From IMG/VR virus record IMGVR_UViG_3300021962_000073, positions 13,978-77,977 of that record: 64,000 nt of DNA, one strand, 5' to 3'. Source of the stretch: a virus. Positions 1,500 through 22,489 of this stretch are shown piece after piece; the stretch's first letter is position 1; every line of letters begins with the position of its first letter. The notes under the pieces were generated by a model. It made no database searches and was not told the DNA's origin. It saw nothing but the letters and a program-made list of their open reading frames with translations. Made by a program: the position numbers and the translations under genes.

Positions 1500-1514
1500 A
1501 TTCGATATGGAGTC

Positions 1515-1820
1515 GTGATGAAAATGATTGATAATGTTAATGCAAACACTTTCGCTGATCAAAAAGCTAGGGATTGGTTGGTTGGCGTTCTTCGTGAACA
1601 GGCTGTCACTGTTACTTTCACAAAACAAGATGGCACTGAACGTGTAATGAATTGTACCTTGTATGAAGGTGATATTCCTGTCGAACAAGCACCAAAAGGA
1701 TCGAGTCGTTCTAAACCAACCGAAGCTCTTGCTGTTTTTGACATTGAAGCAAAAGGTTGGCGTTCATTTCGTTGGGATGCAATTAAAGAAGTTAAATTTA
1801 CACTGGGTCAAGCAAAATGA
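1515..1820 (+). CDS. SH3-fold / WYL_2-like (DUF2693-type) phage protein
   Basis: VTVTFTKQDGTERVMNCTL...FDIEAKGWRSFRWD motif typical of this T4-like family. Confidence 0.75.
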   Translation: MMKMIDNVNANTFADQKARDWLVGVLREQAVTVTFTKQDGTERVMNCTLYEGDIPVEQAPKGSSRSKPTEALAVFDIEAKGWRSFRWDAIKEVKFTLGQAK

Positions 1821-2116
1821 AAAAGTACATTGTTGAAACTATTTCCACTTTTCGTAATGTTCATGTAATTGAAGCTGAGAATGAGGATCATCTTTTGCAA
1901 ATTGCAGAAGAGTGTGATCCAAATTGGGATGATTGGCTAGGTTCAATTAAGCATGATGTAACTGAATACTCTGAAGAAGCAATCTCAAAGTATAAGACAC
2001 GAAAATATTTTTGGAATGGTTCCGTTTTTGTTGATGAAGAAGGATATGTTTGCTATCGAGATGTTGACGGAACAGTTCGAAAATCTAGCTCACATAAAAT
2101 TGATTTAAACCCTTGA
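1817..2116 (+). CDS. hypothetical protein
   Basis: 99-aa ORF coupled to the previous gene (ATGA overlap). Confidence 0.7.
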   Translation: MKKYIVETISTFRNVHVIEAENEDHLLQIAEECDPNWDDWLGSIKHDVTEYSEEAISKYKTRKYFWNGSVFVDEEGYVCYRDVDGTVRKSSSHKIDLNP

Positions 2117-2141
2117 CAAAGAGAAAAAAAGCATATATAGT
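2113..2141 (+). promoter_or_regulatory. sigma70 promoter of the tRNA-array leader
   Basis: TTGACA 2113-2118, 17-nt spacer, TATAGT 2136-2141; predicted +1 near 2148. Confidence 0.8.
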
Positions 2142-2147
2142 ATTACT

Positions 2148-2264
2148 ATGATTAAAACCAAACATTATTTTAGACCCATAACACGATCAACATCGTGGCA
2201 GCCATCCTTTTATCTGGAGATTGGTAATGCCTGCGATAATAAGATTTTAGGGGTTTGTGTATAG
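2148..2264 (+). CDS. putative attenuator leader peptide (38 aa, all 20 amino acids)
   Basis: MIKTKHYFRPITRSTSWQPSFYLEIGNACDNKILGVCV*; ATG at the predicted +1 with no SD; last codons overlap the antiterminator strand. Confidence 0.65.
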   Translation: MIKTKHYFRPITRSTSWQPSFYLEIGNACDNKILGVCV

Positions 2265-2295
2265 TTGTAGCATAGTAGAAATTCACACAAACCCC
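2250..2295 (+). promoter_or_regulatory. antiterminator hairpin
   Basis: GGGGTTTGTGT 2250-2260 is perfectly complementary to ACACAAACCCC 2285-2295, which overlaps the 5' arm of the terminator. Confidence 0.75.
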
Positions 2296-2326
2296 AGACA
2301 CCAAAAGGTCTCTGGGGTTTTTTATT
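2289..2326 (+). terminator. intrinsic terminator (attenuator) upstream of the first tRNA
   Basis: AAACCCCAGA 2289-2298 / TCTGGGGTTT 2311-2320 stem, inner ACC/GGT pairs, T6 tract 2318-2323. Confidence 0.85.
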
Positions 2327-2332
2327 AGTTGT

Positions 2333-2344
2333 TGTTCTTTAAAA
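2333..2344 (+). promoter_or_regulatory. boxA-like antitermination element
   Basis: TGTTCTTTAAAA versus rrn boxA TGCTCTTTAACA, just before tRNA-Gln. Confidence 0.65.
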
Positions 2345-2358
2345 ATTTAGTTTTCTAT

Positions 2359-2432
2359 TGGGGTATGGTGAAATGGCATCACACTCGATTTTGATTCAAG
2401 TATTCTTGGTTCGATTCCAAGTACCCCTGCCA
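2359..2432 (+). tRNA. tRNA-Gln(TTG)
   Basis: Cloverleaf, anticodon loop TT-TTG-AT, T-loop TTCGATT, encoded CCA. Confidence 0.9.
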
Positions 2433-2439
2433 AAATTTA

Positions 2440-2532
2440 GGAAGTGTGGCAGAGCCCGGTTTAATGCAATGCTCTTGAAAAGCATCGGACGTTAAAAGCG
2501 TTCCGTGAGTTCGAATCTCACCGCTTCCACCA
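2440..2532 (+). tRNA. tRNA-Ser(TGA)
   Basis: Loop CT-TGA-AA, long variable arm, CCA. Confidence 0.92.
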
Positions 2533-2540
2533 AATTTAAT

Positions 2541-2632
2541 GGAAAGATGGATGAGTGGTTTAAATCGGCACCCTGCTAAGGTGTTGGTTTGCGAAAGCAG
2601 GCCCGTGGGTTCGAATCCCACTCTTTCCACCA
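2541..2632 (+). tRNA. tRNA-Ser(GCT)
   Basis: Loop CT-GCT-AA, long variable arm, CCA. Confidence 0.92.
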
Positions 2633-2638
2633 AACAAT

Positions 2639-2733
2639 GGTAGGTAGCACTGGTGTGCGGCTGAGTCTTATAAGCTCGGGAGATCGGTCAGATGGGCTGA
2701 AACGGAAGAGTTCGAATCTCTTACCTACTACCA
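2639..2733 (+). tRNA. non-canonical tRNA with TAT anticodon (tRNA-Sec/allo-tRNA-like fold)
   Basis: GGTAGGT/ACCTACT acceptor, D-arm GCAC-TGGT-GTGC, 6-bp anticodon stem with loop CT-TAT-AA, long V-arm, TTCGAAT, ACCA. Confidence 0.7.
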
Positions 2734-2740
2734 AATTCAT

Positions 2741-2818
2741 GCACAGGTGGCAGAGTGGCCCAATGCAAGAGTCTGCAAAACTCTAAAACCGTCGGTTCGA
2801 ATCCGACCCTGTGCTCCA
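2741..2818 (+). tRNA. tRNA-Cys(GCA)
   Basis: Loop CT-GCA-AA, U73 discriminator, CCA. Confidence 0.92.
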
Positions 2819-2875
2819 GTTGTAAAAAAACAACAACAAAAAAGTTGTTGACATAGTTTGTGGAATCTGTATAAT
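2819..2875 (+). promoter_or_regulatory. internal sigma70-type promoter with upstream GTTG-N8-CAAC box
   Basis: GTTG-TAAAAAAA-CAAC 2819-2834; TTGACA 2848-2853, 16-nt spacer, TATAAT 2870-2875. Confidence 0.8.
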
Positions 2876-2896
2876 AGATTCTGTTGATGATGTAAA

Positions 2897-2908
2897 TGCT
2901 CTTTAAAA
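2897..2908 (+). promoter_or_regulatory. boxA-like antitermination element
   Basis: TGCTCTTTAAAA between the promoter and tRNA-Glu. Confidence 0.7.
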
Positions 2909-2921
2909 ACTGTTGTTCGAT

Positions 2922-2996
2922 GCACCGTTCGTCTATCGGTTAGGACGCTAGCCTTTCACGCTGGAAAGACGAGTTCGATTCTCGTACGGTGTACCA
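2922..2996 (+). tRNA. tRNA-Glu(TTC)
   Basis: Loop CT-TTC-AC, CCA. Confidence 0.92.
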
Positions 2997-3128
2997 TATT
3001 GAAACACACTTACACTGTGGCGCTTTGTCCGTCCCTGGTTTAAAACGGGATATCGCATAAACAGTTCAAGCCCCGGTCGCTCCGGTCTGCTGTGTAAAAG
3101 AGAGACGGTCGAGTGTGTTTCAATATGG
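2994..3128 (+). ncRNA. stem-enclosed ncRNA cassette 1 (unknown)
   Basis: Perfect 17-bp closing stem CCATATTGAAACACACT/AGTGTGTTTCAATATGG around about 100 nt with internal hairpins. Confidence 0.6.
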
Positions 3129-3202
3129 GCCTATAGCTCAGAGGTCAGAGCAGTGAACTCATAATTCATTGGTCGTAGGTTCGAAACCTACTGGGCCCAC
3201 CA
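3127..3202 (+). tRNA. tRNA-CAT (Ile2 or Met)
   Basis: Loop CT-CAT-AA; GGGCCTA acceptor is Ile2-like. Confidence 0.88.
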
Positions 3203-3208
3203 AAATTC

Positions 3209-3282
3209 GCGGGTATAACTTAGTGGTAAAGTAACTGGCTTTTAACCAGTAAATCCGAGTTCGATTCTCGGTGCCCGTACCA
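3209..3282 (+). tRNA. tRNA-Lys(TTT)
   Basis: Loop CT-TTT-AA, CCA. Confidence 0.92.
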
Positions 3283-3287
3283 AATAT

Positions 3288-3374
3288 GGATGCGTAGCCA
3301 AATGGTTGACGGCAGCGGGCTGTAAACCCGTGACATAAGAAACGCTGGTGGTTCGAATCCATCCGCATCCACCA
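3288..3374 (+). tRNA. tRNA-Tyr(GTA)
   Basis: Loop CT-GTA-AA, extended variable region, CCA. Confidence 0.92.
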
Positions 3375-3383
3375 AGTTTAGAT

Positions 3384-3459
3384 GGGGGTCTAGCGAGTAA
3401 CATCGCTCAGTCTTAAACGACAGCAAAAGAATGTCGAGAGGACATCCAATTGCGCCCCT
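3384..3459 (+). ncRNA. possible small multi-stem RNA
   Basis: GGGGT/GCCCC closing stem with hairpins AGCGA/TCGCT, GTC/GAC and ATGTC/GACAT; no T-loop or CCA. Confidence 0.35.
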
Positions 3460-3464
3460 TAATC

Positions 3465-3539
3465 GGTTCCATAGTATATCGGCGAGTATAGCGCCCTGTC
3501 ACGGCGCAGGAACGGGTTCGAGTCCCGTTGGGACCGCCA
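3465..3539 (+). tRNA. tRNA-Asp(GTC)
   Basis: Loop CT-GTC-AC, G73, CCA. Confidence 0.92.
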
Positions 3540-3545
3540 GAATGA

Positions 3546-3621
3546 TCCGGAGTAGCACAGCGGTAGTTGCAGCGCACTGTTAATGCGCCTGTCGTTGGTT
3601 CGATCCCAACCTCCGGAGCCA
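3546..3621 (+). tRNA. tRNA-Asn(GTT)
   Basis: Loop CT-GTT-AA, CCA. Confidence 0.92.
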
Positions 3622-3623
3622 AA

Positions 3624-3700
3624 GCCCTCTTACTCCAATTGGTAGAGAGGACGGTCTTAGAAGCCGTAAAGTCTCAGTTCGAATCTGAGAGAGGGCACCA
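3624..3700 (+). tRNA. tRNA-Leu(TAG), short variable arm
   Basis: Loop CT-TAG-AA, only about 5 nt of variable region, CCA. Confidence 0.85.
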
Positions 3701-3822
3701 TATTGAAATATTCTGAGTAGCTACAGCGGAACAACTGATTGCTTGCCAATTCTAGACAAAGCAAGGATCAGCCGTGAAGAGGGGCTATCGCGGATTCAAG
3801 TGCCACAGAATGTTTCAATATG
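3699..3822 (+). ncRNA. stem-enclosed ncRNA cassette 2 (homologous to the tmRNA intervening segment)
   Basis: 17-bp closing stem 3699-3715/3806-3822; cargo shares sequence and covarying stems with 21658-21753. Confidence 0.75.
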
Positions 3823-3823
3823 A

Positions 3824-3945
3824 CCATATTGAAGCGCATAATCGATAGTATACTCAGAACAGGAGTGACTGCCTGGTGCGTATACTTGTAGAGAGATGTA
3901 AAAAGGCCCCGCTGGTCACGGTTATCTCAGTGCGTTTCAATATGG
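3824..3945 (+). ncRNA. stem-enclosed ncRNA cassette 3 (unknown)
   Basis: 15-bp closing stem CCATATTGAAGCGCA/TGCGTTTCAATATGG; internal AGTATAC/GTATACT and GAGAT/ATCTC stems. Confidence 0.6.
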
Positions 3946-3959
3946 TTCTGCAAAATTGA

Positions 3960-4080
3960 TGATGGCAAATCCGCCCAACCATCAGGGCGACTACTTAACC
4001 CTATTGAACGTCTTGCCAACGAGGAGTGGAGAATAGGGGAGTCCAAGAGGACTCTTAAACGGGTGATGGTAACCATACCT
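3960..4080 (+). ncRNA. possible structured RNA with pseudoknot potential
   Basis: CGCCC/GGGCG, CCCTATT/AATAGGG and GAGTCC/GGACTC stems; loop ACCATCA is complementary to TGATGGT 4064-4070. Confidence 0.45.
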
Positions 4081-4084
4081 TTTC

Positions 4085-4162
4085 GGGCCTCTAGCTCATG
4101 TTGGTTAGAGCAGCGAACTCATAATTCGTTGGTGCGCGGTTCGACTCCGCGGGGGCCCACCA
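4085..4162 (+). tRNA. tRNA-CAT (Ile2 or Met)
   Basis: Loop CT-CAT-AA, CCA. Confidence 0.88.
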
Positions 4163-4175
4163 TATATAATGTATT

Positions 4176-4250
4176 GGGCTGCTAGTGATAATGGGAGCAC
4201 GCCGCCTTTGCACGGCGGAGGTTGGAGTTCGATCCTCCAGCGGTCCACCA
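4176..4250 (+). tRNA. tRNA-Ala(TGC)
   Basis: Loop TT-TGC-AC, G3:U70 pair, CCA. Confidence 0.92.
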
Positions 4251-4258
4251 AGTTTTTC

Positions 4259-4333
4259 GCCCCTATAGTTAAATGGCTATAACAGTTGCCTTGTAAGCAT
4301 CAATTCCTAGTTCGATTCCAGGTGGGGGCACCA
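4259..4333 (+). tRNA. tRNA-Thr(TGT)
   Basis: Loop CT-TGT-AA, CCA. Confidence 0.9.
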
Positions 4334-4340
4334 AGTTTTA

Positions 4341-4418
4341 CCGAGTGTAGGATAGTCCGGTTATTCCGCCTGCTTTGGGAGCAGGAAATCGTGTGTTCGA
4401 ATCACACCACTCGGACCA
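4341..4418 (+). tRNA. tRNA-Pro(TGG)
   Basis: Loop TT-TGG-GA, C1:G72, CCA. Confidence 0.92.
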
Positions 4419-4426
4419 GTTTCTAT

Positions 4427-4505
4427 TCCGCAGAACCCGAGCAAGGTGCATGGGCTTGACTGTTAATCAATGGTTAGCAGGGTTCGATTCCCTGATGCGG
4501 AGCCA
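4427..4505 (+). tRNA. second, atypical tRNA-Asn(GTT)
   Basis: Loop CT-GTT-AA; unusual D-arm and 7:66 mismatch; CCA. Confidence 0.75.
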
Positions 4506-4513
4506 ATTTCAGA

Positions 4514-4587
4514 TGCGGGTTGGAGAAAAGGTATCTCGGGAGTCTCATAAGCTCCAGTTGGTGGTTCGATTCCATCATCCGCTACCA
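4514..4587 (+). tRNA. tRNA-CAT, initiator (fMet)-like
   Basis: 1:72 mismatch (T:T), loop CT-CAT-AA; anticodon stem GGAGT/GCTCC. Confidence 0.8.
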
Positions 4588-4593
4588 AGTTAC

Positions 4594-4668
4594 GGTTCAA
4601 TGACGTAGAAAGATGCGTACCGGTTTCATAAGCCGAGGAGAGTGGAGCGTTACCACTTTGAACCACCA
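4594..4668 (+). tRNA. tRNA-CAT with atypical T-loop
   Basis: GGTTCAA/TTGAACC acceptor, loop TT-CAT-AA, T-loop AGCGTTA, CCA. Confidence 0.75.
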
Positions 4669-4677
4669 GGAGATATT

Positions 4678-5418
4678 ATGAATATTGACGAAATTGTTAA
4701 AGTACCATATACAACACAACCAAGAATGATACGAAATACTGGTGAAGTTTTTAATAAAACTCCCGATAAAAAATATTTTGAAGAGAAGAAAATTCAATTA
4801 GATAAATTTGGTTATGATTTGTATGGTATGAATATACCTTGCATTACAGAAAAAGTTATTGAAAAATGTGAATCTTTTTTAGGTAAACCTGTAACTGGTG
4901 ATATCGTAGATTTCGCAATGAACTTTGAAGAAGATATTGCGATTATGCACCATGGTGTTTTGTCTGCAATTTGTTTTTGTTTTCCCAGTTCTTGGATTCC
5001 TTTTTACGGTCTAGACAAAACACTGGAAGAAATACACCGACCTGTGGCTGATGGTGATCATCTTCGGCGTGTAAGTTCGAAACTTACAAAGACAATGGCA
5101 GATCCTATTCTAGGAAGTTTTCTTAGATATGTATGGACTATTACAAAAGTTCCAGATTTAAGTAATCATCCTGAAGTAAAACAAAATTATGATGATGCAG
5201 AATTAACATTCGATAATCTCTATTTTAGATTGGAGAAACAAACAACATTACCATTGAATGATGGTAAGACTAGTTTGTTTTTTGTGAAAGTTGAAGTTGT
5301 TCCATTAAAAAATGTTTGGTCACCACTAATTAAAGAGAGTATTGATTCTATGAGTGATGCGATTATTCAATATAAAAATTTAAAAGAAATTAAAACGGTC
5401 CTTAGTTCAATGGATTAG
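4678..5418 (+). CDS. DUF3445 / heme-dependent oxidative N-demethylase alpha-subunit-like protein
   Basis: CFPSSW...IHRPV...LYFRLEKQT...LFFVKV motifs; ATG 4678 after SD AGGAG; stop lies inside tRNA-Arg. Confidence 0.75.
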   Translation: MNIDEIVKVPYTTQPRMIRNTGEVFNKTPDKKYFEEKKIQLDKFGYDLYGMNIPCITEKVIEKCESFLGKPVTGDIVDFAMNFEEDIAIMHHGVLSAICFCFPSSWIPFYGLDKTLEEIHRPVADGDHLRRVSSKLTKTMADPILGSFLRYVWTITKVPDLSNHPEVKQNYDDAELTFDNLYFRLEKQTTLPLNDGKTSLFFVKVEVVPLKNVWSPLIKESIDSMSDAIIQYKNLKEIKTVLSSMD

Positions 5419-5471
5419 AATCCCTTGCTACGAACGAGGAGACGGGAGTTCGATTCTCTCAGGACCGGCCA
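5396..5471 (+). tRNA. tRNA-Arg(ACG)
   Basis: Loop CT-ACG-AA, CCA; overlaps the 3' end of the upstream CDS. Confidence 0.88.
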
Positions 5472-5476
5472 ATTAT

Positions 5477-5551
5477 GCCCCGTTAGCTGAGATGGATTAG
5501 CAACGTCTTGATAAGGCGTAGAGAATGGATCGATACCATTACGGGGTACCA
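5477..5551 (+). tRNA. tRNA-Ile(GAT)
   Basis: Loop TT-GAT-AA, variant T-loop ATCGATA, CCA. Confidence 0.85.
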
Positions 5552-5556
5552 TCAAT

Positions 5557-5631
5557 CTCGGTGTAGTGTTAATGGCAGCACGAGAGTCTCCAAAACTCCA
5601 AGATGCGGTTCGAGTCCGTACACCGAGGCCA
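5557..5631 (+). tRNA. tRNA-Trp(CCA)
   Basis: Loop CT-CCA-AA, G73, CCA. Confidence 0.9.
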
Positions 5632-5648
5632 TTTTATAGGAGTGAGAT

Positions 5649-6119
5649 ATGTACAACAAAAAAATTAATTTAAATGAAGTGAAAGCATTCATCGATAGTT
5701 GTGGTCCTAATACCAAAGTTTATCTTGGATGCGATTCTGAGAAAGTTAAAATTAATGGTGTATGGCATGCGGATTATATTATAGCCATTGTTGTACATAT
5801 GAACAGCAAGCATGGTTGTAAAATTTTCGGTCAAATTACTCGTGAACGTGATTATGACCAAGCACGAAATAAACCAAGAATGCGATTGATGAATGAAGTA
5901 TATAAAGTTGCCGAGATGTATCTTGAATTAGCGGCAATGATTGATGTTGAAATTGAAGTTCATCTTGACATCAATCCAAATGAAGAGTATAATTCAAATA
6001 TTGTAATCAATGAGGCGATTGGCTACATAAAAGGAATGTGTAATGTTGTTCCTCTTGTAAAACCAAATGCTTTTGCGGCTTCATATGCAGCCGATAGATT
6101 GAAAAGTTTAGTAGCTTAA
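5649..6119 (+). CDS. RNase H-like YkuK family (DUF458) protein
   Basis: VYLGCDS...EVHLDIN...KPNAFAASYAAD motifs. Confidence 0.85.
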   Translation: MYNKKINLNEVKAFIDSCGPNTKVYLGCDSEKVKINGVWHADYIIAIVVHMNSKHGCKIFGQITRERDYDQARNKPRMRLMNEVYKVAEMYLELAAMIDVEIEVHLDINPNEEYNSNIVINEAIGYIKGMCNVVPLVKPNAFAASYAADRLKSLVA

Positions 6120-6121
6120 TT

Positions 6122-6198
6122 GCGGGTATGGTGTTTAATGGCTAGCACGACAGCCTTCCAAGCTGACAGTATCGGTTCGAATCCGATTACCCGCTCCA
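6122..6198 (+). tRNA. tRNA-Gly(TCC)
   Basis: Loop CT-TCC-AA, U73, CCA. Confidence 0.92.
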
Positions 6199-6215
6199 TA
6201 TTTTTATATAAATGA

Positions 6216-6752
6216 ATGGAACTTAAATCTTTTGTCAAACATTATGAAAATGTATTGAGCCCCCAAACTTGCGAACGAATAATCCAAGAATTTGAGAACA
6301 ATCGTTCACATATCACTCAATACGATAATGAGCATTACAAGTTTGATCAGTTAGATTTAAATACATCTGGCAATCAACTTTTAGCGAAAGCATTTATACA
6401 ACAGGTCGTACCATATCTGAAAAATTATATTAGTTTGTTGAGTGTTGAACCTTATGTTAAGATTCGAGGTTTTGAAAATGTACGCATCAAAAAATATCTG
6501 AAAGGATCAGATTATAAATTCAAAACTCATGTTGATGTTGATGATAAAGATTCGGCAGTTCGATATTTGATTTTTATTTTGTATTTAAATGATAACAATG
6601 GATGTACAACTTTTCCTAATCTAGGATTGTCTTTCAAACCAAAACAAGGAAGTATGATTATGTTTCCTCCGTTTTGGATGTTTCCTCATTCAGGTGAAAC
6701 ACCGACAGACAATGATAAGTATATTATGATGAGTTGTCTTCACTATAGTTAA
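6216..6752 (+). CDS. 2OG-Fe(II) oxygenase (prolyl 4-hydroxylase-like)
   Basis: HVD...LYLND...FPPFWMFPH...KY facial-triad pattern. Confidence 0.85.
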   Translation: MELKSFVKHYENVLSPQTCERIIQEFENNRSHITQYDNEHYKFDQLDLNTSGNQLLAKAFIQQVVPYLKNYISLLSVEPYVKIRGFENVRIKKYLKGSDYKFKTHVDVDDKDSAVRYLIFILYLNDNNGCTTFPNLGLSFKPKQGSMIMFPPFWMFPHSGETPTDNDKYIMMSCLHYS

Positions 6753-6753
6753 A

Positions 6754-6843
6754 GCAGGAGTGGAGAAATCGGTAAACTCAGTGGACTTAAAATCCACCGG
6801 CACTAAAAACGCCTTGCGGGTTCAAGTCCCGCCTCCTGCACCA
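6754..6843 (+). tRNA. tRNA-Leu(TAA)
   Basis: Loop CT-TAA-AA, long variable region, CCA. Confidence 0.92.
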
Positions 6844-6847
6844 CAAC

Positions 6848-6922
6848 CTGACCGTAGTTAAATGGATATAACATGGGTCTTCTAAACCCAGATTCCAGGT
6901 TCGATTCCTGGCGGTCGGGCCA
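6848..6922 (+). tRNA. tRNA-Arg(TCT)
   Basis: Loop CT-TCT-AA, CCA. Confidence 0.92.
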
Positions 6923-6923
6923 C

Positions 6924-7184
6924 CTATACTACAAACTTAACGTATAGTGTGCAATCACCATCAGTTTCTCCCAGAATGGTGATTCTTCCATTTTCAATTT
7001 CTACATTTTCTTCTGCGATTTCTTCAACTTTCTCAGCACTTACGAATAGGCTCTGTACCATCGTTAACTTATAAACGCCTGTCCCTCCGTTTACAACAGA
7101 GTTCATAATATCAACTTCATTTTCATTAAAGAAACCATCTGTTGCTGTAATATCGTCAAATAAAAAATCGTCTACGCTTGTCAT
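6924..7184 (-). CDS. acidic hypothetical protein
   Basis: 86 aa, SD AAGGA upstream, last gene of the minus-strand block. Confidence 0.65.
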   Translation of the reverse strand: MTSVDDFLFDDITATDGFFNENEVDIMNSVVNGGTGVYKLTMVQSLFVSAEKVEEIAEENVEIENGRITILGETDGDCTLYVKFVV

Positions 7185-7194
7185 TTTTATGTCC

Positions 7195-7512
7195 TTAGGT
7201 TGGTGTGTCTTCTACGATGTTGAAATTCTTTCCTGATGAAACCACGCAATAAAGATCCTCGGAGATTTTTTCGACAACGGTCCACGTTTTAGTTCTTTTA
7301 TTTAGAAAAAATATTACTACCGATTCGACTATAGTTCTATTATTTGTCGATCTAACTGTTTCTCCGGCAGCAAAAGGTTTTTCATTAAATTCTACCATCA
7401 CTGCCGTTAAATCTTTCAAATTACCACATTCTACTGGTAATAACCTAGTTTGAGCATTTGCGGTTAAAGAGGTTAGAAGAGCCATTAATACTATTAGATA
7501 TTTCATGATCAA
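7195..7512 (-). CDS. secreted hypothetical protein
   Basis: N-terminal signal peptide (…TANA/Q), two Cys. Confidence 0.7.
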   Translation of the reverse strand: MIMKYLIVLMALLTSLTANAQTRLLPVECGNLKDLTAVMVEFNEKPFAAGETVRSTNNRTIVESVVIFFLNKRTKTWTVVEKISEDLYCVVSSGKNFNIVEDTPT

Positions 7513-7545
7513 GCCCTTATGAAAAGTATTTGATTAGTTATGTAG

Positions 7546-8064
7546 TTACCATTTTCCAGCACTTCTTCCATACTCATAAAACCAAACGAAAAATTTAATT
7601 GCAACAGTAATGCTTATGATAAGTAAAGTTCCCCAAAAGGCATTTTCTATAAATTTCTTTCTTCTTTGGGCTTGATCTCTAATTGCTTTCTCTCTTTCTT
7701 CTCTAACTTTTTTTCGGATAGCTATGAATTCTCGATATCCTTCTTGACTTAGATGCTGTAAAGCACCATAATAAAACATGTGTTGAATTTCCGCTTCCAT
7801 CTCTCTAAGTTTTTGTTGAGCGGCATAAATGTCCATCGCTTCAGCCGTATCACTTTTAGCGAATCCAATTTTTTGAAAGATGCCAGGTTTTTTCTGATGA
7901 TTAGGATCTCTCGACTTGTTTATGAAGTCTTGTAGTTGACCTGCTGAGTCTGCCCACTTGTTTAGTTGTCCGAAAATATCTTGTACCTCTCTTCCAACGG
8001 CAATCGCCTTCTTGATTCCATTGAAGGCGGCAGTTGTTGCTGCAAGAAGTGTTACGGGATCCAT
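7546..8064 (-). CDS. membrane protein, hypothetical
   Basis: Amphipathic N-terminus, coiled coil, C-terminal TM helix. Confidence 0.75.
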   Translation of the reverse strand: MDPVTLLAATTAAFNGIKKAIAVGREVQDIFGQLNKWADSAGQLQDFINKSRDPNHQKKPGIFQKIGFAKSDTAEAMDIYAAQQKLREMEAEIQHMFYYGALQHLSQEGYREFIAIRKKVREEREKAIRDQAQRRKKFIENAFWGTLLIISITVAIKFFVWFYEYGRSAGKW

Positions 8065-8732
8065 TAGTTCGCCAATGGATTATCTAATGCTTTTTTAATC
8101 TTATCATCAACTTCACGGCGAATTGTTCTTATTTCATTATTCGTTTCACGTTCAATTCGATTTACCCTTTCATTAACTCCTTGAACTGTCGCATCTACTT
8201 GCTTTTGCATTTCTCGCACAGATGAATCTGTTGATCTACGAATTTCTTTTATTTCCCCATCAACTTGCTTACGAATTTCTTTGAAGTCAACTTCAACTTG
8301 TCTGCGAACTTCAATAACCGCTCTCTCAACTTCTCTCTGTGCGACCTTACTGCTTCTTTCTACGCCTTCCAATACACCTTCTGTTCTACGAATATCACCT
8401 TTAAGGTTCTGATTGATATCACGAGTATAACCAACCACCTTTTCGCTATTTTCTTCTAGTTTAATAATTCTTGCTTCATATTCGCTGAAATCTGGTGCGA
8501 CATAATTCGCTATTTTCTTTTTCATTCCCATATAATCATTGTATGCTTCAAAACATCCATATAGTCCACCTATAACTGATGAAACAATACCAAATGCAAT
8601 CATGAGTTTTGCAGGTGTAAACTCATATCCACCAATGCTGATAACGGTATCTTTACTCGCATACTTTTTCATAGCCGCTTCTGCGGCTTCTACCTTTTTG
8701 TTTAAATCTACTTTATCTTCTGTACTGCTCAT
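8064..8732 (-). CDS. membrane-anchored coiled-coil protein
   Basis: One TM segment then 11-residue amphipathic repeats, ends ALDNPLAN. Confidence 0.75.
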   Translation of the reverse strand: MSSTEDKVDLNKKVEAAEAAMKKYASKDTVISIGGYEFTPAKLMIAFGIVSSVIGGLYGCFEAYNDYMGMKKKIANYVAPDFSEYEARIIKLEENSEKVVGYTRDINQNLKGDIRRTEGVLEGVERSSKVAQREVERAVIEVRRQVEVDFKEIRKQVDGEIKEIRRSTDSSVREMQKQVDATVQGVNERVNRIERETNNEIRTIRREVDDKIKKALDNPLAN

Positions 8733-13773: not shown

Positions 13774-14197
13774 TCTGATGTATCATGAAATAATTGAACT
13801 TTTTCAAAAAACGGAAAAACGTTCGGAAAAAATTGAAGTATTACGAAAACATGCTGATGTTAATTTCGTTAATTTTCTGAAGATGGCTTTTGATCCACGA
13901 ATAGTTTTTGATGTTGAAATTCCTTCGTACAATCCATCAATTATTCCTGCCGGTCTAAATGATTTGTATCTTCATAGTGAAATCCAGAGAATGTATAGAT
14001 TCATCAAAGATCATCCTCGTAGACCTCATGGACTAACCGCAGCAAAACAGAAAAGTTTGCTCATTTCCGTTTTGGAATCTCTTCATAAAGATGAAGCGGA
14101 TTTAATGATTCGTTGTATCAATAAAGATTTAAAAGTTCCCTTTCTAACTCCAAAACTTATTAAAGAAGCTTTTCCTGATTTGGATCTGGGTGTATGA
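13763..14197 (+). CDS. conserved T4-like hypothetical protein
   Basis: LESLHKDEA...KLIKEAFP pattern; follows rnh. Confidence 0.75.
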   Translation: MSSNLMYHEIIELFQKTEKRSEKIEVLRKHADVNFVNFLKMAFDPRIVFDVEIPSYNPSIIPAGLNDLYLHSEIQRMYRFIKDHPRRPHGLTAAKQKSLLISVLESLHKDEADLMIRCINKDLKVPFLTPKLIKEAFPDLDLGV

Positions 14198-21383: not shown

Positions 21384-21572
21384 ATGTGGGTTTGGATATT
21401 ATCCATCACATTATTAGGTACCAATCCTGAACATTCAAGAATCGCTAAATTTGAGACTAAAGAAGATTGTCAGAAAGCACTGATTGCTAAAAGAAAAGAA
21501 TATGAACTAAAAGGTAGAGAAATGGTTGGTCATTGTTTTTATGGAAGAACAGATTCTAAAGGTTGGTGGTAA
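21384..21572 (+). CDS. small hypothetical protein
   Basis: 62 aa, hydrophobic N-terminus, F.TKEDC motif. Confidence 0.6.
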   Translation: MWVWILSITLLGTNPEHSRIAKFETKEDCQKALIAKRKEYELKGREMVGHCFYGRTDSKGWW

Positions 21573-21584
21573 TAAATAAAGCTA

Positions 21585-21931
21585 TGATCGTATGAAGTAG
21601 ATCGAAAGGTGTTCTGGACGGCGGTTCGATTCCGCCCAGGTCCACCAGTAAACTCTTTGAGTGACTACACTGGAACAACTGCAACACTTGCCAAAGTCGA
21701 CTAAAGCAAGAACCAGCCAGGAAGTAGGGTCACCGTGATTTCGAGTATCGCAGAGAGTTTACTAATGGGCCTGACCTGGTTTCGACAGGGCAATAAGTAG
21801 AGACATGGACGATCCGACACAGAGAGTCGTAAAAAGTAAATTCAATAAACGCAAATGAAGAAATCTTTGCATTAGCCGCCTAAACACGGCTTAGGGTTTC
21901 GGTGGGTTTCCTCGTAACAGAATAACCCACC
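21585..21931 (+). ncRNA. ssrA: circularly permuted (two-piece) tmRNA
   Basis: Acceptor piece with T-arm and CAGGTCC-ACCA ending 21647; coding piece starts GGGCCTG 21767 (G3:U70); tag ANEEIFALAA* 21851-21883; AATAAATA upstream. Confidence 0.9.
21648..21766 (+). ncRNA. structured RNA cargo in the tmRNA intervening segment
   Basis: 13-bp closing stem AGTAAACTCTTTG/CAGAGAGTTTACT; cargo homologous to 3714-3808. Confidence 0.7.
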
Positions 21932-21952
21932 ATCACTACTAGGAGGTATCAA

Positions 21953-22489
21953 ATGAAAAGTTTAACTTTTCTTAGTGTGATTTTTTTTATGCTTATAGTG
22001 AAAAACGTTTACGCTATACCAAATACGATTCTCTTCAGGGATCTTACCGCAGAAGCGCAGAAGCAGGTCGTATGTTTAGCAGATAACATCTATTTTGAAG
22101 CAGCCAGCGAATCTCATAACGGCAAAATGGCTGTTGGATTTGTCACACTAAATCGCGTTTCAACAGGAAACTATCCAAATACAGTTTGCGGAGTTGTACA
22201 TCAAAAGATAAGAGGAATTTGTCAATTTTCTTGGTATTGTGATCCAACCACTGCTAAGAAAAGGTTGACAATAAGATCCACTTCATTGTATAATGATATC
22301 TTGGATTTGGCAGTGTTTCTTGCGGTTTATTATCATTTTATAGAAGATGTTTCCAAAGGAGCCACACATTTTCATTCCGTCAGAGTTAATCCGAGATGGA
22401 AATTACAAAAAACTAGTCAAATAGGACAACACATATTTTATAGAAATAGATACGAAAGAATTAATAAAGAAAAATTTATTTTGGCATAA
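21953..22489 (+). CDS. cell wall hydrolase (SleB/Hydrolase_2)
   Basis: CLADNIYFEA, V.LNRV, YPNTVCGVV.Q, CQFSW, GATHFH, IGQHIFY. Confidence 0.9.
   Translation: MKSLTFLSVIFFMLIVKNVYAIPNTILFRDLTAEAQKQVVCLADNIYFEAASESHNGKMAVGFVTLNRVSTGNYPNTVCGVVHQKIRGICQFSWYCDPTTAKKRLTIRSTSLYNDILDLAVFLAVYYHFIEDVSKGATHFHSVRVNPRWKLQKTSQIGQHIFYRNRYERINKEKFILA

Follow-up and report, generated by a model that had tools for sequence, protein, structure and literature searches.

A probable trp-type attenuator with a leader peptide of all twenty amino acids upstream of a phage tRNA array

A putative attenuator at the head of an array of transfer RNA (tRNA) genes was analysed in the DNA of an uncultured virus. The window, i.e. 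the whole stretch of DNA studied here, is 64 kb (positions 13,978 to 77,977 of IMG/VR record IMGVR_UViG_3300021962_000073) out of a 78-kb viral contig that is estimated to be half complete. Between a promoter at position 2113 and tRNA-Gln at 2359, where a series of 24 tRNA genes begins, lie a short open reading frame (ORF) with codons for all 20 amino acids, an antiterminator and a terminator hairpin that overlap, and a boxA-like site. This cassette is probably a trp-type, ribosome-mediated attenuator that gates tRNA transcription from the promoter and reports the decoding of nearly all amino acids; that it is a ribosome-mediated attenuator of some kind is more likely still. The anatomy of the cassette, its conservation and the selection for a near-complete set of amino acids in the leader are directly visible in the sequences compared.

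All features of the cassette lie on the + strand. The promoter, P1 (2113-2141), consists of a -35 box TTGACA (2113-2118), a 17-nt spacer and a -10 box TATAGT (2136-2141), and matches the sigma-70 consensus at 11 of 12 positions, in line with the promoter named in the original prediction, which had been made from the letters of the window alone. The ATG of the leader ORF (2148-2264) is found 6 nt past the -10 box, with no purine-rich Shine-Dalgarno sequence before it; the transcript is probably leaderless. As had been predicted, the 38 codons of this ORF, which ends with the stop codon TAG at 2262-2264, cover 20 amino acid types with 31 distinct codons. Its last codons double as the 5' arm of the antiterminator (segment 2), GGGGTTTGTGT at 2250-2260, which is perfectly complementary to the 3' arm (segment 3) at 2285-2295, giving an 11-bp helix of -18.4 kcal/mol. 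Segment 3 in turn overlaps, at 2289-2295, the 5' arm of an intrinsic terminator (2289-2323; -19.5 kcal/mol), the stem of which (2292-2302/2307-2317) is extended by A/T pairs and followed by a T6 run (2318-2323). Hence the alternative pairing between the last codons and the terminator, on which the prediction turned, is present, and the two hairpins are of near-equal strength. The leader RNA folds better than 200 of 200 shuffled sequences (z = -3.5). Downstream of the terminator come the expected boxA-like site, TGTTCTTTAAAAA at 2333-2345, and tRNA-Gln.

Relatives of the cassette were sought first with the two antiterminator arms, in viral contigs, and then with the terminator and boxA only, in viral and metagenome contigs; the ORF was not part of the pattern. 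After the removal of near-duplicates, approximately 11 diverged lineages of one clade were retained (window/L002/L088, L060/L146, L056, L062, L069, L061/L070/L087/L101, L058/L066/L067/L073/L082/L127, L055, L048, L049 and L126). Every match with tRNA genes downstream also had a short ORF ending just upstream, and an ORF of 31-45 codons is present in 11 of 11 lineages, although the leader peptides are merely 14-35% identical between lineages. These lineages, found without using the ORF, support the predicted reading, which is that of the 2:3 versus 3:4 alternatives of trp and his attenuators. In all lineages having downstream sequence the array begins with tRNA-Gln, except for L048, in which it begins with tRNA-Glu; L049 stops at a contig edge. 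The genes upstream vary between lineages, while P1 stays with the leader.

The start of the leader ORF is conserved in a more particular way. A -10-like hexamer lies 5-7 nt ahead of the leader ATG in nine lineages, and the remaining two (L062 and L069) have a Shine-Dalgarno-like AGGAAA or AAGGA ahead of the ATG instead. These two ways of retaining a translation start argue for translation of the ORF. In L056, L126, L049, L062 and L069, TAAATA or TATAAATA stands in front of the leader ATG in place of a sigma-70 -10 box (TATAAT). Such sequences presumably resemble a T4-type late promoter; if this likeness holds, the cassette may belong to one temporal class in some phages and to another in others.

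At the other end of the ORF, the stop codon falls 10-24 nt past the first G of segment 2 in every lineage. The nucleotides of this arm (GGGGTTT...) are near-invariant, yet the codon position in which they are read (1, 2 or 3) differs between lineages, giving Gly-Val-Cys, Gly-Gly-Phe-Val or Gly-Phe-Val. This implies that the arm is conserved as RNA, and the end of the ORF conserved in position. Between close relatives the indels are in frame: 3 nt between the window and L002, 18 nt between L058 and L055, and 3 and 9 nt in L055-like variants. Relatives that keep the terminator while losing the frame of the ORF or the alternative pairing had been named beforehand as the outcome that would speak against the prediction; instead, the ORF, the position of its stop and the exclusive hairpins are all kept in the 11 lineages.

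The two hairpins have AAACCCC in common across lineages, with free energies among 10 representatives of -11.7 to -21.9 kcal/mol for the antiterminator and -13.7 to -19.5 kcal/mol for the terminator; the sequence of the terminator stem changes between lineages and its pairing is kept. The complementary upstream arm is strong in the 30 pattern matches that precede tRNAs (mean -17.0 kcal/mol, z = -3.0 relative to shuffles), whereas it is weak in the 40 matches that simply lie at the ends of protein genes (mean -8.6 kcal/mol, z = -0.5), a difference with a Mann-Whitney p of 1.5e-8 between sequences that are related and not independent. In the distant cassettes L063/L068, L064 and L078 the terminator stems are very different, and the upstream arms match their own stems. 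This matching of arm and stem is the best covariation-like evidence for the putative antiterminator helix. Cassettes of this distant kind, with the same grammar and small arrays, were observed in L063/L090 and L068/L147 (giant-phage contigs of 372 kb and 229 kb), L078 and L075.

The composition of the leader peptide is unusual by several measures. Of the 123 ATG-initiated ORFs of 30-50 codons in the six frames of the window, the leader alone has 20 amino acid types, and 20 types are reached in 0.07% of 38-residue segments from the long ORFs of the phage. Under the composition of the phage proteome the probability is P = 6e-4. Because Gly, Val, Cys or Phe are imposed by the sequence of the arm, the start and the last six residues were also kept fixed, which gives P = 1e-3 to 3e-3. 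The number of types is 20 in six lineages, 19 in four and 18 in one, and extra variants from protein databases have 19-20. With fixed ends, the P values of the individual lineages range from 4e-4 to 3e-2 under proteome composition and from 3e-3 to 5e-2 under uniform codons, values that are not independent, as the lineages are related.

The rarer residues are retained without staying in place. His is found in six alignment columns, Cys in six and Asp in five; Glu, Gln, Ala, Phe and Tyr likewise change columns between lineages, and in clade C the Pro codons have gone from one site and are present at another. Random uniform replacement of as many residues as were observed to differ, starting from a 20-type peptide, keeps all 20 types in 2-8% of trials per deep pair, while five deep branches have kept all 20. 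Rare residues that are kept, yet move, imply that selection acts on whether each amino acid occurs in the leader and not on where it occurs.

The contents of the leaders can also be set beside those of the arrays they precede. Of the arrays contained whole on their contigs, those of L070 (27 tRNAs) and L082 (26 tRNAs) serve all 20 amino acids and those of L060, L067 and L073 serve 19; the corresponding leaders have 20 types. Both lineages with a known array and a leader lacking His (L048/L051 and L062) also lack tRNA-His, so that at the level of lineages His is present in both leader and array in five cases and absent from both in two, which is suggestive only. In the distant cassettes, for which the array spans were picked by eye, the amino acids of each small array are over-represented in its own leader: 15 of 30 leader residues in L090 (array Phe, Gln, Arg and Val; P = 9e-5), 10 of 30 in L147 (Phe, Gln and Arg; P = 1e-3), 8 of 21 in L078 (Lys, Leu, Met and Trp; P = 8e-3) and 19 of 39 in L075 (Ala, Cys, Asp, Gly, Met and Tyr; P = 2e-3). 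The leaders of L090 and L147 carry runs rich in Gln, Phe and Val, as well as Arg, ahead of the Gln, Phe, Arg and Val tRNAs.

The behaviour of the leader was modelled co-transcriptionally, by placing a ribosome with an assumed footprint of 30 nt at each codon and folding the RNA up to segment 3. In this model the antiterminator forms on a leader free of ribosomes and on one whose ribosome has its A site within the first 27-37 codons; it is blocked when the ribosome is in the last 7-10 codons or at the stop. The original prediction, that a ribosome at the stop would mask the arm and that a stall at any earlier codon, or the absence of a ribosome, would free it, is thus reproduced by the model for the first 27-37 codons, rather than for any codon.

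These results are consistent with the following mechanism, in which the start of transcription, the translation of the ORF, the direction of the switch and its trigger are all deduced from sequence. RNA polymerase would start at or next to the A of the ATG, producing a leaderless transcript onto which a ribosome could load as the 5' end emerges. A ribosome keeping pace would sit at 2250-2264 as segment 3 (2285-2295) emerges, burying the antiterminator arm; the terminator (2292-2323) would then form, and transcription would stop after approximately 176 nt. Were the ribosome to lag or stall within roughly the first 30 codons, or never to load, segment 2 would pair with segment 3, the terminator would be blocked and the polymerase would continue through boxA into the tRNA genes. 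The boxA would presumably recruit host Nus factors that protect the untranslated RNA from Rho. With one to four codons for almost every amino acid, the leader would report the decoding speed of nearly the whole pool of charged tRNA instead of that of a single amino acid, and the output, more phage tRNA, would close a feedback loop.

A wider proposal can be put forward with some hesitation, as it is slightly more doubtful than not. This is that the leader is a 'pangram', in which codons for nearly all the amino acids, at least one of each, are maintained by selection, making it a universal meter of decoding speed. The array would be switched on when any host tRNA becomes limiting, be it through host DNA breakdown, starvation or tRNA-cleaving defence nucleases, and the design would scale from small arrays with leaders of few amino acids to complete arrays with leaders of all 20. 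The link between the switch and anticodon nucleases is speculation.

In addition to the relatedness of the lineages behind the P values above, several observations weigh against an attenuator that senses the whole tRNA pool. Most amino acids occur only once or twice per leader, implying a low sensitivity to a mild shortage of any one of them. The modelled sensing span holds 17-19 amino acid types, and Val, and often Gly, are found only in the arm outside this span; hence the claim that any codon could trigger read-through was slightly overstated. When equilibrium folding includes the finished terminator, the terminator wins in several lineages at any position of the ribosome, so the switch would have to be kinetic, as in classical attenuators. 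A second promoter, P2, supplies most of the array without an attenuator.

The match between leaders and arrays is also imperfect. The array of the window lacks Phe, His and Val tRNAs though its leader has those residues (the His and Val tRNAs are present in L002), and in L062 a leader of 19 types precedes an array covering 11 amino acids. At the level of codons, 213 in seven leaders match phage anticodons relative to an expected 194, and the 31 distinct codons in 38 of the window leader are unremarkable alone (P = 0.18). The suggestion that the leader samples isoacceptors is thus weakly supported, with the diversity of synonymous codons raised in the family as a whole (304 observed against 283 ± 5.7 with the codon usage of the window applied to all lineages). 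G/C-ending codons, held in the original prediction to be numerous for such a genome, are only modestly in excess (0.34 observed, 0.25 expected).

Finally, the lower 7 bp of the antiterminator helix are invariant in the clade, and the pair count on a covariance-model alignment, in which the upper helix is mis-registered (TTT/AAA to TTTT/AAAA), did not exceed that of controls. Statistical covariation within the clade is therefore not claimed; it is the distant cassettes, along with register-shifted changes read by eye, that point to this helix.

The alternative that best survives these observations, although it seems rather unlikely, is that the same attenuator senses the general coupling of transcription and translation, i.e. 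ribosome availability, competence for leaderless initiation or overall elongation after host shut-off, rather than the tRNA pool. The even mix of amino acids would then merely average out codon-specific noise, or reflect weak constraint. A leader with only one or two codons for each amino acid would sense a single tRNA poorly, the antiterminator is predicted to form by default without a ribosome and the leaderless start is conserved, all of which fit such a role, as do the weak match of codons to phage tRNAs and the greater range of amino acids in the L062 and window leaders than in their own arrays. However, the averaging of noise does not require that every rare residue (Trp, His and Cys) be retained while positions shift. 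Neither does it account for the enrichment of distant leaders in the amino acids of their own small arrays, or for the loss of His from the leader alongside the loss of tRNA-His in two separate lineages.

A less probable explanation still is that the terminated transcript of 176 nt is itself the product, either as a small RNA or as the mRNA of a 38-residue micro-protein, with the tRNAs being transcribed from P2, P3 and through leakage. A promoter, about 176 nt and a strong terminator do have the shape of a small gene, and Trp and an S-x-R-P stretch are conserved in the peptide. The ratio of nonsynonymous to synonymous polymorphism (pN/pS) is 0.1-0.4 within clade D, suggesting some constraint on the peptide; in clade C it is about 1.3, and yet four of four variants keep 20 types. 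Taken together, these values imply that the sequence of the peptide itself is not strongly conserved. In addition, the C-terminal part is read in three frames with its nucleotides conserved, residues shift position between lineages, and no PHROG protein family matches the leader peptide. The cassette is always directly upstream of a boxA and tRNA array, whereas look-alike terminators of protein genes lack the complementary arm. The remaining possibility, a chance open frame in front of hairpins that are a mere terminator of the upstream gene cluster, is very improbable: a 38-codon frame at 36% G+C is not very rare (about 6%, by our own estimate), but the ORF, its start by the -10 box and its stop position are kept in 11 lineages despite 60-80% divergence of the peptide and four in-frame indels, its amino acid diversity is far above every null model, and P1 travels with the leader while the upstream genes differ.

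The proposed trp-type attenuator can be compared with several known systems. Leader-peptide attenuators of enterobacterial amino acid operons comprise trpL, hisL, pheL, leuL, thrL and the multivalent leader of ilvGMEDA. The phage cassette shares with them a short ORF adjacent to the promoter, a choice between antiterminator (2:3) and intrinsic terminator (3:4) that would be made by the position of the ribosome, and termination when a ribosome at the stop masks segment 2. Of five sequence-level hallmarks of the trp/his type, four are found here, namely the promoter-adjacent ORF with a usable start, the exclusive hairpins, the intrinsic terminator and a stop that would mask segment 2. The fifth, a cluster of regulatory codons, is not seen in the clade; in place of a run of a single codon, almost all 20 amino acids have some one to four codons each, with 18-20 types in one to a few copies. 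Sensing of more than one amino acid is itself not new, as the ilv and thr leaders already do so. Further differences are that the phage cassette controls tRNAs where the known leaders control biosynthetic enzymes, that its mRNA is probably leaderless, that its stop is within or just after segment 2, that a boxA lies past the terminator and that it is borne by a phage. The curated Rfam leaders (His, Trp, Thr, Leu and Phe) and the T-box gave no match in a cmscan of positions 1500-8000; with E values up to 1, the same scan returned only tRNAs and a chance-level match of NsiR1 to the terminator (22 bits against a gathering score of 39).

T-boxes, which are found in Firmicutes, bind one uncharged tRNA directly, without an ORF. 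The phage cassette resembles them in that an antiterminator/terminator switch would be tied to the charging state of tRNA and governs genes for translation supply, and differs in that the ribosome would be the reader and many amino acids would be sampled. As in the boxA/Nus antitermination of rrn operons, boxA-like sites are located just before untranslated RNA genes, where they may bind Nus factors; unlike in rrn operons, the phage boxA follows a regulated terminator, in a tRNA operon. With the pyrBI and pyrE attenuators of E. coli, the phage cassette would share an outcome set by how closely the leader ribosome trails the polymerase, although in the opposite sense. In the pyr systems a close ribosome prevents the terminator, such that coupling leads to read-through, whereas the phage geometry predicts that a close ribosome leads to termination.

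We know of little work on how phages regulate their own tRNA genes, and a literature search found neither a published description of phage tRNA genes controlled through a leader peptide nor one of a leader with 20 amino acids. There is also growing recognition that bacterial immunity targets tRNAs (PMC12851939). If correct, the present reading would describe the first classical trp-type switch that controls the supply of tRNA instead of the synthesis of amino acids. It would also bring a new kind of sensing, in which a single leader that retains all 20 amino acids reads the entire decoding pool. The reading predicts that the expression of phage tRNAs is driven by demand. The promoter and boxA look compatible with E. 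coli, so the cassette should be portable into laboratory reporters. Furthermore, the order promoter, short ORF, arm, terminator, boxA and tRNA provides an annotation signature for tRNA operons in uncultured phages.

Downstream of the cassette, the first block of tRNA genes (2359-2818, + strand) encodes Gln(UUG), Ser(UGA), Ser(GCU), a tRNA with the anticodon UAU and Cys(GCA). It is followed by P2 and a second boxA (2848-2909, + strand). P2 had been predicted to drive the downstream array from position 2848, and a promoter with 12 of 12 consensus positions (TTGACA, a 16-nt spacer and TATAAT) is indeed found there, with no leader ORF. As P2 lacks a leader, only the first five tRNAs would depend strictly on P1. 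The P2 copy of boxA, TGCTCTTTAAAAA, is at 2897-2909, with tRNA-Glu next at 2922, and the same arrangement of P2 followed by boxA is present in L062. The rest of the array (2922-6922, + strand) has 19 more tRNAs interleaved with three ORFs, and would be fed by read-through from P1, by P2 and possibly by P3 (5965-5993). An inverted A/T-rich repeat (CAACAAC, 6 nt, GTTGTTG) at 2825-2850 overlaps the -35 box of P2 and may be an operator; P1 has no such repeat.

Both boxA-like sites in the window are 12-13 nt before a tRNA. They match what we take to be the rrn-type boxA consensus, TGCTCTTTAACAA, for which no citable source was found, at 11 of 13 (2333-2345) and 12 of 13 (2897-2909) positions, and L048 has an exact copy. 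As boxA was one half of the search pattern, the conservation of boxA across the family is by construction, except in L048, which was found through the hairpin alone.

Within the array, the anticodon-UAU tRNA (2639-2733) has a long variable arm; the tRNA-Sec model gives it 30.6 bits, which is less than the gathering score. Relatives in clade A have retained this tRNA. In L002, which is 98% identical, Gly(GCC), His and Val tRNAs come after Gly(UCC) (7955-8263), in the part compared with 6122-6922 of the window. The window instead has an ORF of 178 residues there (6216-6752), resembling 2-oxoglutarate/Fe(II) (2OG-Fe(II)) oxygenases and endonucleases, and it lacks tRNA-His and tRNA-Val because this ORF occupies their place.

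Some other loci resemble the cassette in part. In L062, an exact copy of the attenuator terminator sequence (4480-4640, minus strand) ends a protein gene inserted between tRNA-Cys and a P2-like promoter before tRNA-Glu. The second match of the covariance model in this lineage is a plain terminator of this kind, after a protein gene and before a P2-like promoter, and was rejected as a further cassette. A second, G+C-richer family was observed in three metagenome contigs (L080, L096 and L141), with the leader approximately 50-54 nt upstream of an AAACCCC terminator. It has a TTGACA/TAAACT promoter, a 52-codon ORF with all 20 amino acids in three variants and several alternative hairpins, and then the terminator, a boxA and a tRNA array beginning with Tyr/Asn/Asp. 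This looks like an independent 'pangram' leader.

The carrier of the cassette is an uncultured T4-like water phage. The baseplate genes in the window are of T4 type, and by baseplate protein the nearest cultured relatives are the Methylophilales phage Melnitz and Pelagibacter myophages, at approximately 40% protein identity. Melnitz has four scattered tRNAs and no array. The cassette was not found among 50,697 cultured phage records with BLAST searches for near and distant relatives and with relaxed short queries, which returned only tRNA-Ser genes or chance matches. Similarly, the clade was not found in 185,579 bacterial and archaeal genomes scanned with the terminator and boxA pattern; the single tRNA-linked match is on a short contig of a metagenome-assembled genome, outside the clade and with no clue to a host. 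Anchoring on neighbouring proteins yielded one close relative, and other loci without the cassette.

DNA sequencing runs that hold the stretch with the cassette come from river, lake, estuary and marine samples. River metatranscriptome contigs of low depth overlap the leader, and one spans the terminator into tRNA-Gln; their starts, ends and strand are not visible, and carry-over of DNA is possible. The window also encodes a transfer-messenger RNA (21555-21974), which ARAGORN reports as permuted, with the tag peptide ANEEIFALAA. In combination with the tRNA array and the putative attenuator, this suggests that the phage invests heavily in sustaining translation.

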